A stretch of DNA of 64,000 nt, from assembly GCF_006345805.1 (NCBI RefSeq), contig NC_042999.1:67022001-67086000 (forward strand), read 5' to 3'. A program made the position numbers and the translations under genes. Origin of the DNA: Octopus sinensis (lineage: Eukaryota). Under the pieces are notes generated by a model. It did no database searches. It saw only the letters and a program-made list of their open reading frames with translations, and was not told the DNA's origin. Shown piece by piece: positions 3,292-13,652 of this stretch (the first letter of the stretch is position 1; every line of letters starts with the position of its first letter).

Positions 3292-3337
3292 AACACAACG
3301 TTTCAGCTGATATACCCTCCAGCCTTCATCAGGTGTC
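3292..3337 (-). ncRNA. Minimal type I hammerhead ribozyme
   Basis: Minus strand: acac-CTGATGA-a-ggctg-gagggtatat-cagct-GAAAC-GTT-gtgt, with palindromic AACGTT stem III. Confidence 0.78.
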
Positions 3338-9737: not shown

Positions 9738-11245
9738 ATACATTCGAGCGTGGCCATTGCCAGTGCCATCTGACTGGCTCCTGTGCCAGTGACATGTAAA
9801 AAGCACCATTCGAGCATGGTCGTTGCCAGTGCCACCTGACTAGCCCTTGGGGCAGTGGCACATAAAAAACACCCACTACACTCTTGGGGTTATAGAAAAC
9901 CTTGCTAGAGCAGATTGGAGCCTGGTACAGCCTTCTGGCTTGACAGTCCACAGTCAAACCATCCAACCCATGCCAGCATGGAAAGCAGACGTTAAACGAC
10001 GACGACGATGATGGTGATGATGATGATGATGATAACGACAATGACGATGATGATGATGATGACGACAACGACGATGATGATGATGATGACAACAACGATG
10101 ATGATGGCGACGACGACGACAACAGCGGTGATGATGATACTAGTCATCTAGTATATGTAACTTGTGTATACTATGAAGTGTGTGAAGGCACATGGCTTAG
10201 TAGTTAGGGTATTTGGCTTATAGTTATAAGGTTGTGGGTTTGATTCCTGGTAGTATGTTGTGTCCTTGAGCAAGACACTTTATTTCATGTTGCTCCAGTC
10301 CACTCAGCTGGCAAAAATTAAGTTGTACCTGGAATTCAAAGGGGCCAGCATTATCACATTTGGTGTGCCATGCTGAATCTCCCTGAGAACTACATTAAGT
10401 ACAGATGTGATTGTGTAGTACTCAACCACCTGCATGTTAATTTTAAGAGCAGGCTGTGCCACAGTCCAGATCAACAGGAACACAAATCATCATAACCAAC
10501 GAAGTGCCAGTTACTATGAAGTGCATATATTACATCTAGTATATAGTATGTGTGAAAGAGTATGGCCTTGTGGTTGAGGCATGGGCTGGCAATAGTTAGA
10601 TCATGGGTTCAATCCCCAGGCCAGGTCACATGTAGTTTACTTGAATAAGTTACTTCATTTTACATTGTGCCAATCAATTTAGTTAAGACGAGTCCCAGTA
10701 AAGTACTGGGGTAGTTGTGCTATTTTAGATGTTCCACAGGGTCATTGACACCTCCTCAGACTTTCCAGTGGTCATTGGCCCTACTTCAGGCACTGGAAAG
10801 GGCCAAGGGATCTCAATGTCTGCTTACAATTGCACAGATGTCAAAACCAAAGCTTGAATGCATGGTACATGATACCAGGTTATACTGAAAATATGAGAGG
10901 CATACATTTAATCTATTGTGTGAAATAATCTAGTACATACCATGTACTACATCTGCTATGTAATATGCACTAGTTAATATATAGCTTAACAAGTACATAG
11001 ATCATGGAGTATAAACTATAAATGTATACACACACAGACTCAGACACACAAACACATGCATGCACACACACACACACACACATACACATACACATATATA
11101 TGTATATATATATATATATATATTAACAATTAAGGAACGGCCATAATAGGCCATTCACCCACTAGAAATAACAGCCAAAGCTTCTACCGCAAATAAAGAT
11201 TAATTCCGTAAACAGGAGAAAATTAAAAAAAACATTTACCCTGTA

Positions 11246-11352
11246 ATTTCTTGTACGGTATACCGTTTCATCCGCTGTTTAATGGTAAACTAACCTGATT
11301 AAATTAAATCAAGCCAATCTTCCATAAGCCCTCGGATTCTTCAGCAAGAAAT
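11246..11352 (-). ncRNA. Type I hammerhead ribozyme, array copy 1
   Basis: Minus strand: atttcttg-CTGAAGA-atccg...cggat-GAAAC-ggtatacc-GTA-caagaaat (stem I, core, stem II, GAAA, palindromic stem III, GUA site, stem I'). Confidence 0.88.
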
Positions 11353-11735
11353 AGCTCAAGTCGGAACAGATATTTACACGAGGCATACCCAATCTTGCCA
11401 AGGCAATATCTGACCTAAAATTTTCAAATCGTCGCACTCGCGCCAAATTTATCGGCAGCAATAAATATCAGCCGTCGATTCCATTACGGAATTAACCAAA
11501 AAATTCATAATTAATCAATATAGGGTGGCAAGGAAAATTTTGTGGAATTTTTTGCCACCAGCGGCCCAGTGGGAAAAAATTAAATAGTCATAGACCATTT
11601 TTAAGTTCAACATTAACAATTAAGGAACGGCCATAATAGGCCATTCACCCACTAGAAATAACAGCCAAAGCTTCTACCCGCAAATAAAGATTAATTCCGT
11701 AAACAGGAGAAAATTAAAAAAACATTTACCCTGTA

Positions 11736-11842
11736 ATTTCTTGTACGGTATACCGTTTCATCCGCTGTTTAATGGTAAACTAACCTGATTAAATTAAATC
11801 AAGCCAATCTTCCATAAGCCCTCGGATTCTTCAGCAAGAAAT
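11736..11842 (-). ncRNA. Type I hammerhead ribozyme, array copy 2
   Basis: Same motif as copy 1, 490 bp away. Confidence 0.88.
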
Positions 11843-12226
11843 AGCTCAAGTCGGAACAGATATTTACACGAGGCATACCCAATCTTGCCAAGGCAATATC
11901 TGACCTAAAATTTTCAAATCGTCGCACTCGCGCCAAATTTATCGGCAGCAAATAAATATCAGCCGTCGATTCCATTACGGAATTAACCAAAAAATTCATA
12001 ATTAATCAATATAGGGTGGCAAGGAAAATTTTGTAGAATTTTATTGCCACCAGCGGCCCAGTGGGAAAAAAATTAAATAGTCATAGACCATTTTTAAGTT
12101 CAACATTAACAATTAAGGAACGGCCATAATAGGCCATTCACCCACTAGAAATAACAGCCAAAGCTTCTACCGCAAATAAAGATTAATTCCGTAAACAGGA
12201 GAAAATTAAAAAACATTTACCCTGTA

Positions 12227-12333
12227 ATTTCTTGTACGGTATACCGTTTCATCCGCTGTTTAATGGTAAACTAACCTGATTAAATTAAATCAAGCCAATC
12301 TTCCATAAGCCCTCGGATTCTTCAGCAAGAAAT
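12227..12333 (-). ncRNA. Type I hammerhead ribozyme, array copy 3
   Basis: Same motif as copy 1. Confidence 0.88.
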
Positions 12334-12804
12334 AGCTCAAGTCGGAACAGATATTTACACGAGGCATACCCAATCTTGCCAAGGCAATATCTGACCTAAA
12401 ATTTTCAAATCGTCGCACTCGCGCCAAATTTATTTTTTTTAATTTTCTCCTGTTTACGGAATTAATCTTTATTTGCGGTAGAAGCTTTGGCTGTTATTTC
12501 TAGTGGGTGAATGGCCTATTATGGCCGTTCCTTAATTGTTAATGTTGAACTTAAAAATGGTCTATGACTATTTAATTTTTTCCCACTGGGCCGCTGGTGG
12601 CAATAAAATTCTACAAAATTTTCCTTGCCACCCTATATTGATTAATTATGAATTTTTTGGTTAATTCCGTAATGGAATCGACGGCTGATATTTATTTGCT
12701 GCCGATAAATTTGGCGCGAGTGCGACGATTTGAAAATTTTAGGTCAGATATTGCCTTGGCAAGATTGGGTATGCCTCGTGTAAATATCTGTTCCGACTTG
12801 AGCT

Positions 12805-12910
12805 ATTTCTTGCTGAAGAATCCGAGGGCTTATGGAAGATTGGCTTGATTTAATTTAATCAGGTTAGTTACCATTAAACAGCGGATGAAACGGTATACCG
12901 TACAAGAAAT
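12805..12910 (+). ncRNA. Type I hammerhead ribozyme, array copy 4
   Basis: atttcttg 12805-12812, CTGAAGA 12813-12819, atccg 12820-12824 pairing with cggat 12882-12886, GAAA 12887-12890, GTA 12900-12902, caagaaat 12903-12910. Confidence 0.88.
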
Positions 12911-13294
12911 TATAGGGTAAATGTTTTTTTAATTTTCTCCTGTTTACGGAATTAATCTTTATTTGCGGTAGAAGCTTTGGCTGTTATTTCTAGTGGGTGA
13001 ATGGCCTATTATGGCCGTTCCTTAATTGTTAATGTTGAACTTAAAAATGGTCTATGACTATTTAATTTTTTCCCACTGGGCCGCTGGTGGCAATAAAATT
13101 CTACAAAATTTTCCTTGCCACCCTATATTGATTAATTATGAATTTTTTGGTTAATTCCGTAATGGAATCGACGGCTGATATTTATTTGCTGCCGATAAAT
13201 TTGGCGCGAGTGCGACGATTTGAAAATTTTAGGTCAGATATTGCCTTGGCAAGATTGGCTATGCCTCGTGTAAATATCTGTTCCGACTTGAGCT

Positions 13295-13401
13295 ATTTCT
13301 TGCTGAAGAATCCGAGGGCTTATGGAAGATTGGCTTGATTTAATTTAATCAGGTTAGTTTACCATTAAACAGCGGATGAAACGGTATACCGTACAAGAAA
13401 T
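13295..13401 (+). ncRNA. Type I hammerhead ribozyme, array copy 5
   Basis: CTGAAGA 13303-13309, GAAA 13378-13381, GTA 13391-13393; stems as in copy 4. Confidence 0.88.
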
Positions 13402-13652
13402 TACAGGGTAAATGTTTTTTTAATTTTCTCCTGTTTACGGAATTAATCTTTATTTGCGGTAGAAGCTTTGGCTGTTATTTCTAGTGGGTGAATGGCCTAT
13501 TATGGCCGTTCCTTAATTGTTAATGTTGAACTTAAAAATGGTCTATGACTATTTAATTTTTCCCACTGGGCCGCTGGTGGCAATAAAATTCTACAAAATT
13601 TTCCTTGCCACCCTATATTGATTAATTATATATATATATATATATATATAAG

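Follow-up and report, generated by a model that had tools for sequence, protein, structure and literature searches.

A hammerhead ribozyme motif with a long structured insert in stem II and a fully self-complementary stem III lies on the plus strand of Octopus sinensis contig NC_042999.1, at positions 12805-12910 of the 64,000-nt stretch that was analysed (contig positions 67,022,001 to 67,086,000; here called the window). The question raised by this locus is which role such an extension can have in a self-cleaving RNA. The first-pass annotation had suggested that it may supply tertiary contacts, a handle for reverse transcriptase (RT) binding or a switch controlling cleavage, and that the palindromic stem III may pair between neighbouring units.

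Architecture of the Hammerhead

Positions 12799-12910 are assigned to the type I hammerheads by sequence, with the core CUGANGA...GAAA...UH, a three-helix junction and an open stem I. The following features were identified.

12799..12804, plus strand: 5' flank of stem I, UGAGCU; predicted pseudoknot strand with the core AGC at 12801-12803
12805..12812, plus strand: stem I, 5' strand; pairs with 12903-12910, two-sided changes in 4/5 counted pairs
12813..12819, plus strand: catalytic core CUGAAGA (C3-A9), from the sequence and the Rfam alignment
12820..12824, plus strand: 5' strand of proximal stem II, AUCCG, paired to 12882-12886
12825..12831, plus strand: internal loop, 5' strand; predicted to pair in the pseudoknot through GCU at 12828-12830, at most GGCUUA at 12827-12832
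12832..12874, plus strand: distal hairpin with UAAUUU apex; 17 bp predicted for the window copy, versus 19 alignment positions counted
12875..12881, plus strand: internal loop, 3' strand UAAACAG; A-rich in every family viewed
12887..12890, plus strand: catalytic core GAAA (G12-A15.1), from the sequence and the Rfam alignment
12890..12901, plus strand: stem III, 12-nt palindrome; 4 bp and a UAUA loop in the monomer, a 12-bp duplex between neighbouring units
12900..12902, plus strand: GUA cleavage triplet, from the hammerhead consensus; predicted cut at 12902/12903
12903..12910, plus strand: stem I, 3' strand; pairs with 12805-12812

Every element named in the first-pass annotation was present at its place when the sequence was checked. 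ATCCG (12820-12824) and CGGAT (12882-12886) flank a 57-nt insert (12825-12881), which forms an extended imperfect hairpin from atgg/ccat (12832-35/12871-74), ttggc/gttag (12840-44/12863-67) and ttgatt/aatcag (12845-50/12857-62) around the loop taattt (12851-56), and stem III, ACGGTATACCGT (12890-12901), is a perfect 12-nt palindrome. The insert length of 57 nt is correct for the copy at 12805-12910, but not as the family norm: this copy is one T short, and an insert of 58 nt was found in 4/5 window copies and in most of the 53 near-identical genomic copies that were extracted (30 identical).

The minimum free energy (MFE) structure of 12800-12915 is the hammerhead, at -33.4 kcal/mol (z -4.06; 1/200 shuffles as good), which confirms the fold. 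Stem II by itself reached z -4.95 (0/200 shuffles as good) and the 57-nt insert by itself z -2.93 (3/200). The Rfam model Hammerhead_1 (RF00163) aligns to 12807-12908 with 21.5 bits, below its gathering score of 34 because of the insert, and a search of the whole window with Rfam gave no hammerhead family among the matches listed (150 of 159). Rfam microRNA matches within the window were rejected as TA/CA microsatellites.

The Element Carrying the Ribozyme

The hammerhead is part of an insertion at 11122-13629, in which tandem units of 491 bp are organized in two inverted arms with their 5' ends meeting at 12433/12434, inside a (TA)n microsatellite.

11122..12433, minus strand: left arm, 2.7 tandem copies of the 491-bp unit with three hammerheads; the outer boundary is unit position 131 past the cut site, next to (TA)n
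11246..11358, minus strand: left-arm hammerhead copy
11736..11848, minus strand: left-arm hammerhead copy
12227..12339, minus strand: left-arm hammerhead copy
12434..13629, plus strand: right arm, 2.4 tandem copies with two hammerheads; outer end at unit position 237, next to (TA)n
13289..13401, plus strand: second plus-strand hammerhead (58-nt insert), predicted dimer partner

The unit has a GC content of 0.363; its longest ATG open reading frame (ORF) codes for 66 aa and is disrupted in some copies, and no tRNA was found when looked for in the unit. A DNA search of the genome with the unit gave 953 candidates, and the 40 of these that were scored are 97-100% identical. Thirty loci at 97-100% identity correspond to 13 distinct insertions, and in 10/13 of these the two-armed layout was identified, one arm terminating 129-133 nt and the second 234-241 nt beyond the cut site, in (TA)n. 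Partial tandems, an inverted 5'-truncated copy, two alternative 3' ends (a tail) and a microsatellite target are thus all present, as in elements mobilised by PLEs; partial tandems, inverted copy and tail are described as the PLE layout in the consulted parts of PMC8557442 and PMC11167929. The PLE tail is given there as 30-40 bp (PMC8557442), and that of the octopus element is longer, about 105 nt. Because of this layout, and since at least two type I hammerhead units are present in a non-coding, dispersed element, the insertion is classified as a non-LTR retrozyme of Penelope style.

An autonomous partner was looked for in 30 GIY-YIG loci (out of 147 matches, 5,029 candidates): homology to the unit was absent from all 30, and none of them matched in a scan for canonical hammerheads. 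One locus (L180), in which a decayed GIY-YIG ORF is followed about 840 nt downstream by a long-stem-II hammerhead, was considered as evidence that autonomous PLEs bear the long stem and was rejected, because the ORF is present in only 1/20 copies and the other copies lose the match about 185 nt upstream. A PLE family with a C-terminal GIY-YIG domain and a CxxxxC linker (L038, L047) carries a hammerhead-like core about 650 nt past the ORF stop, just before (TA)n, in which U3-A8 replaces C3-G8 as judged by eye. The window contains a second head-to-head pair of cores at 3332 (minus strand) and 3693 (plus strand), with a stem II of 21 nt and a stem III of 2 nt, resembling the minimal PLE hammerheads. 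One contig from a run guessed to be RNA wraps round the unit, which equally fits a tandem transcript, DNA or a circle.

Stem-loops were identified at 12999-13020 and 13086-13122 (also at 13490-13511 and 13576-13612), with the fixed arm ends 13-17 nt 3' of each; the first of these two arm-end hairpins covaries strongly. The stem-loops are candidate RT start signals.

Relatives and Conservation of the Stem II Extension

The 53 near-identical young copies were too alike to be informative for covariation. Variant letters in public contigs indicated sister subfamilies, and relatives were collected by pattern searches of the genome. Cores with a stem II of 53-83 nt numbered 5,607 (29 in controls) and cores with a stem II of 5-52 nt only 213 (48 in controls); homologous cores among the 213 mostly retain the internal loop and a shorter hairpin. 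A further 3,340 cores had a second stem III type. Of the roughly 5,600 copies in the genome, 57-62 related ones made up the covariation set, drawn from the matches listed (first 100 per pattern) and mostly from two contigs, C1 and C2. The 36 representatives chosen first share about 64-97% identity with the window unit across much of its length. Alignment A1 was an unedited MAFFT alignment of 37 representatives, and the tree was built on the sequence downstream of the ribozyme, that is, outside it.

The core CUGAAGA is invariant in A1 except for N7, the core having been included in the search patterns, and the cleavage triplet of the relatives is GUA or GUC. In stems I-III, two-sided changes were found in 4/5, 3/3 and 2/4 counted pairs, respectively. 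The first pair of proximal stem II, A-U in the window copy, is unpaired in 14/37 relatives.

For the 19 distal pairs of the extension, 90.0% of 701 cells of A1 are paired and two-sided changes occur in 7/19. The covariation score of the distal helix exceeded 500/500 shuffles, and slid partners pair at 16-52%. Since shuffles ignore kinship, changes were also counted on the tree. On internal branches, 22/25 changes from the paired state keep the pair, against 0.35 expected from an estimated substitution spectrum, with 6/37 register-shifted rows left out of the count; on terminal branches the pair is kept in 16/24 changes. Two of the 22 pair-keeping events are direct two-sided swaps and the remainder proceed via G-U. 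A lack of covariation had been named in the first-pass annotation as one of the outcomes that would speak against a role of the insert; the insert does covary, and the comparison of its copies establishes the stem II extension as being under selection for pairing.

Length and apex vary. Stem II measures 67-68 nt in the window copies and 36-73 nt across families. The apex TTTAATTTAAT is present in 36/61 representatives, 18 of which were fetched by a pattern requiring it, and the apex pattern was found in 1,500 genomic cores versus 1 control. Short D-like families and the distant family K have different apices, retain the internal loop and have also spread. An invariant apex acting as a specific handle, apparent in A1, was dropped after these families had been included. 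Because hairpin length and apex sequence vary, the apex is a poor candidate for a handle specific to an RT, and the arms do not terminate at stem II but 131 and 237 nt further downstream, counted from the cut; the RT-binding role proposed earlier thus found no support here.

Several further observations concern the relatives. The tree forms a ladder of subfamilies with stem II going from about 44 to 68 nt, a direction that the midpoint root only suggests. Two tandem copies (G000:C7:75364615 and 75365077) are without the 3' half of the distal hairpin and represent a natural deletion variant. Other families (L122, L125, L138, L140, L141, L142, L150, L164, L176, L272-L290) have long AU-rich stems II of 52-84 nt; their stem III is a palindrome of 8 nt, a GCC/GGC pseudoknot is not obvious in them, and in some the internal loop is a tandem AG/GA. 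CUGAAGA...GAAAC also occurs in an abundant family, represented by G000:C1:841449 and many further matches. In two contig runs guessed to be RNA, A-to-G changes dominate (8/14 and 5/10 changed places; 1/10 in run X16), with sites at 12832, 12837, 12861 and 12866. This excess, in RNA-labelled runs with no matched DNA, is a hint of A-to-I editing of the element RNA.

A Predicted Pseudoknot between Stem I Flank and Internal Loop

The 5' flank of stem I (12801-12803) and the internal loop of stem II (12828-12830) can form a candidate helix of 3-6 bp, which in the window is extendable to 6 bp with -4.8 kcal/mol as a duplex. The pairs are AGC/GCU in the window, GGC/GCC in most subfamilies and GGU/ACC in family B. 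Among 54 anchored copies, the three central positions are Watson-Crick paired in 52, 52 and 48, with 0, 1 and 5 additional G-U pairs. The register of the loop was taken from the MAFFT columns and that of the flank from a separate flank-only rule, because MAFFT left the flank unaligned; 3/57 copies had no anchor. In this register 89% of positions pair, versus 19-55% for slid controls.

Among 20 copies fetched after the match had been noticed, 16 were above a fixed threshold, and the mean of this out-of-sample set narrowly exceeded the maximum of 1,000 shuffles (9.0 versus 8.7). The distant family K, which has another apex, shows AGG/CCU in 24/26 matches, with A-G at the adjoining end position in 7/26, the loci overlapping and not being de-duplicated. 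In a ranking of 6,602 column helices of three bp, each with two or more varying pairs, the flank/loop helix tied for first place with a Watson-Crick fraction of 0.938, the other top-ranked helix being an ordinary local hairpin. When G-U is admitted, 5/6,602 attain 95% pairing at two varying pairs, two of the five resembling chance matches, and four helices besides the flank/loop one come to similar values. A haplotype tally gave 410/444 fully paired copies and was not counted as support, the loci overlapping and the loop rule presupposing RCY.

On the tree, three double changes were identified: G-C to A-U in the window subfamily, C-G to U-A by way of U-G, and U-A to A-U by way of U-U, two of the three with a visible intermediate. 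One position is invariant and carries no covariation signal, and an A-C mismatch is inherited in a clade of two copies (L188, L200; support 92). The positions of flank and loop move together with stem length (Spearman -0.48, kinship ignored). Since three bases of each strand change in step, the internal loop and the stem I flank are likely to pair as a short pseudoknot, the core of which is only 3 bp and which rests on three double-change events. The tertiary contact joining stem I to stem II that the first-pass annotation had envisaged is thereby supported and located, as a covarying helix of 12828-12830 with 12801-12803. On the opposite side of the internal loop, UAAACAG (12875-12881) possibly serves as an A-minor strand.

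Stem III and a Possible Double Hammerhead

All six stem III pairs are possible in 60/61 representatives, with the loops UGCA, UAUA and AUAU. Palindromy of the loop could be judged freely in only 23 representatives (18 + 5), the other set having been fetched with U..A fixed in the stem III loop; in 23/23 the loop is palindromic. As a duplex, stem III was calculated at -18.8 kcal/mol versus -2.9 kcal/mol for the hairpin. In a two-unit transcript the inter-unit pairing of stem III has a probability of 0.997, and the constrained dimer lies 4.8 kcal/mol below two monomers. Since a monomer hairpin needs no self-complementary loop, these data point to selection on the inter-unit duplex, and the retention of a palindromic loop through three sequence states, together with the modelled energies, favours cleavage as a double hammerhead in tandem transcripts. 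The monomer may cleave as well, since models of a short construct continue to form its 4-bp stem (P 0.96). The dimer option of the first-pass annotation is hence upheld next to a monomer form, but the term "minimal PLE hammerhead", which implies a helix III that is lacking or of 1-2 bp and no tertiary contact, does not suit a ribozyme with a 4-bp stem III and a candidate pseudoknot.

Folding in the Longer Context

When the motif was folded in the context of the window, a competing pairing of flank and core (12797-12803 with 12812-12818, P about 0.95) was predicted, which is exclusive with the pseudoknot. Stem I reached P > 0.5 in only 5/62 representatives, with a median gap of 4.4 kcal/mol, in secondary-structure models that omit the energy of the pseudoknot, itself of the same size as this gap. 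The active dimer lies 6.4 kcal/mol above the MFE, the circle is predicted without stem I, and the unit as a whole has a strong fold (circular MFE z -5.3 versus 30 shuffles). According to these models, a switch is possible. However, the flank-core pairing is mismatched in 15/54 copies, and C3 is predicted to be paired upstream in only 18/62; the flank-core hairpin was therefore rejected as a conserved off switch. Of the switch suggested earlier, a competing hairpin in the window subfamily is left, and its pairing is not shared by the 15/54 mismatched relatives.

Comparison with Known Hammerheads

Metazoan non-LTR retrozymes, as described in the consulted parts of PMC7229834 and bioRxiv 10.64898/2026.07.22.740005, are likewise built of non-coding units repeated in tandem, with a type I hammerhead in every unit, a GC content below 50% (here 0.36), thousands of dispersed copies and a link to PLEs. 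Their units are 170-400 nt (PMC7229834) or 51-972 bp long (bioRxiv 10.64898/2026.07.22.740005), compared to 491 bp here. Stem II has about 4 bp and a loop in these retrozymes versus 67-68 nt in the octopus element, stem III 1-2 bp versus a 12-nt palindrome (both sources, in part), and the canonical loop-loop contact described for them is here replaced by a predicted Watson-Crick pseudoknot. For frog retrozyme dimers, in vitro cleavage is reported in only 1/9 (bioRxiv 10.64898/2026.07.22.740005, part of the text).

Pseudoknots between stems I and II are described in the available part of PMC3088659 for about 40% of hammerheads, where they activate cleavage; there, too, and especially in type II, a short helix links the peripheries of both stems. 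In type II, as judged from that text, the partner is the strand that leads on from stem II past the CUGANGA core and so corresponds to the one used here, whereas the octopus ribozyme is type I and a long hairpin closes its loop strand. According to the same part of PMC3088659, the stem-length analysis of that study left out type I representatives that are highly repetitive. A covarying Watson-Crick helix between the two peripheries, the kind of criterion used by Perreault 2011, was found here with some exceptions.

The type III hammerheads of toad and termite HDV-like RNAs, dipteran genomes and satCYDV-RPV have an internal loop GCCR with an extra cap hairpin that pairs with YGGC (PMC7936874, in part), the same pair as in most subfamilies here. 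The arrangement is a mirror image: internal loop and cap are described there on helix I with YGGC as loop II, while in the octopus family they are located on helix II and YGGC flanks helix I. Those ribozymes are type III with a monomer-type stem III, in contrast to the type I ribozyme with a palindromic stem III found here. The minimal PLE hammerheads acting as dimers share the type I topology, the palindromic stem III and the tandem and inverted PLE-style layout. In the parts of PMC4209133 and PMC6765202 that were available, they have little or no helix III, their helix II measures 6-8 bp and a tertiary contact is not recognisable in them, whereas stem I has 8 bp, the monomer stem III 4 bp and a candidate tertiary helix is present here. 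The "long helix II" in the accessible part of PMC13725137 is one of 6-8 bp.

Proposed Mechanism and Alternatives

The explanation that we consider rather probable is that of a type I retrozyme hammerhead in which an internal loop with a long conserved hairpin on top takes the place of the usual small loop II, and in which the likely pseudoknot with the stem I flank would supply the contact for fast cleavage. The pseudoknot would be the stem I-stem II contact that fast cleavage requires, and it could form in monomer or dimer because flank, core and stem II share one unit. The distal hairpin would mainly act as a clamp, closing the internal loop and holding it in position, and for this reason its pairing would matter, its length and apex not. 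In tandem transcripts, neighbouring palindromic stems III would pair over 12 bp and cleavage would proceed via the double hammerhead, freeing 491-nt monomers able to circularise; a Penelope-like RT/endonuclease would then copy the RNA into (TA)n.

The same pseudoknot might instead form as a brake or switch, so that either it or the flank-core hairpin keeps monomer or circle inactive and cleavage occurs only in the double hammerhead or with a Penelope protein. This agrees with the exclusive flank-core pairing predicted in the window and with the predicted circle without stem I. The satRPV pseudoknot is inhibitory. In the consulted parts of the literature, loop I-II interactions "somehow controlled" satRPV cleavage (PMC6155905), satRPV RNA requires the double hammerhead, and the Poseidon_Ac hammerhead cleaves only with protein (PMC11167929). 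However, while the flank-core pairing fails in the mismatched relatives and seldom reaches C3, the flank-loop pairing is almost always kept; flank and loop shift together with stem length, as a fixed stem I-II geometry predicts; and the pseudoknot alone cannot distinguish monomer from dimer because it is formed within one unit. A brake is accordingly held to be unlikely.

The two other alternatives concern the extension itself. The distal hairpin could be a separate module, a site for a Penelope protein, a dsRNA-binding protein or ADAR that is merely located in stem II. Its conserved pairing, at up to 19 positions, far exceeds the need of closing an internal loop, the common apex with its near absence from controls, the A-to-G excess at distal-helix sites and the long AU-rich stems II of other, apparently unrelated families are also in line with a module; yet stem II ranges over 36-73 nt, the families with another apex spread as well, the insertion ends lie near other stem-loops downstream of the cut, and the head-to-head arms yield long dsRNA anyway, so that this role appears quite improbable. 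That the extension is a tolerated, near-neutral expansion of loop II by slippage of AU-rich pentamers, paired only via selection on folding of the whole RNA, with the flank/loop match arising from coincidence and kinship, is regarded as very improbable. The strong fold of the whole unit and the chance-like helices among the 6,602 would be compatible with such an expansion, and mussel retrozyme hammerheads cleave without archetypal loop contacts (PMC7229834, in part). Against it, the flank/loop match is Watson-Crick, sits where hammerheads make the stem I-II contact, passed the out-of-sample test and includes three double changes, and members free of the extension are rare, the homologues among the 213 short cores mostly keeping internal loop and hairpin.

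Implications

Retrozymes are known, as are dimers through a palindromic stem III and hammerheads with a pseudoknot, and their combination, as deduced from the sequences, is apparently new. In the full-text literature, with supplements outside the scope and subscription journals largely missing, no type I retrozyme hammerhead combining a long capped stem II with this pseudoknot was found. Because all ingredients are known, the gain is a new architecture and a test system, not a new principle. The motif scores below the Rfam threshold and falls outside the spacers of 7-17 nt used in the published PLE core search, as given in the available part of PMC8557442, which leaves a detection gap; genome cores with spacers of 52-82 nt number 9,173 versus 541 in controls.

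In a bolder and doubtful reading, which we put no higher than the brake, a large animal retrozyme superfamily employs a so far undescribed hammerhead with two locks, in which the pseudoknot pre-folds the enzyme half, the 12-bp palindrome ties cleavage to the tandem neighbour and the distal hairpin, as a module sensitive to protein or ADAR, couples cleavage to transposition. Were this true, long-stem-II hammerheads, with about 9,000 cores in the genome, would represent a class escaping the standard searches.

The octopus family provides a natural compensatory set, with AGC/GCU, GGC/GCC and GGU/ACC, stems II of 36-73 nt and three palindromic loops. Some animal retrozyme and PLE hammerheads are without the standard loop-loop contact and slow in vitro, and the octopus family offers a candidate for a replacement contact.
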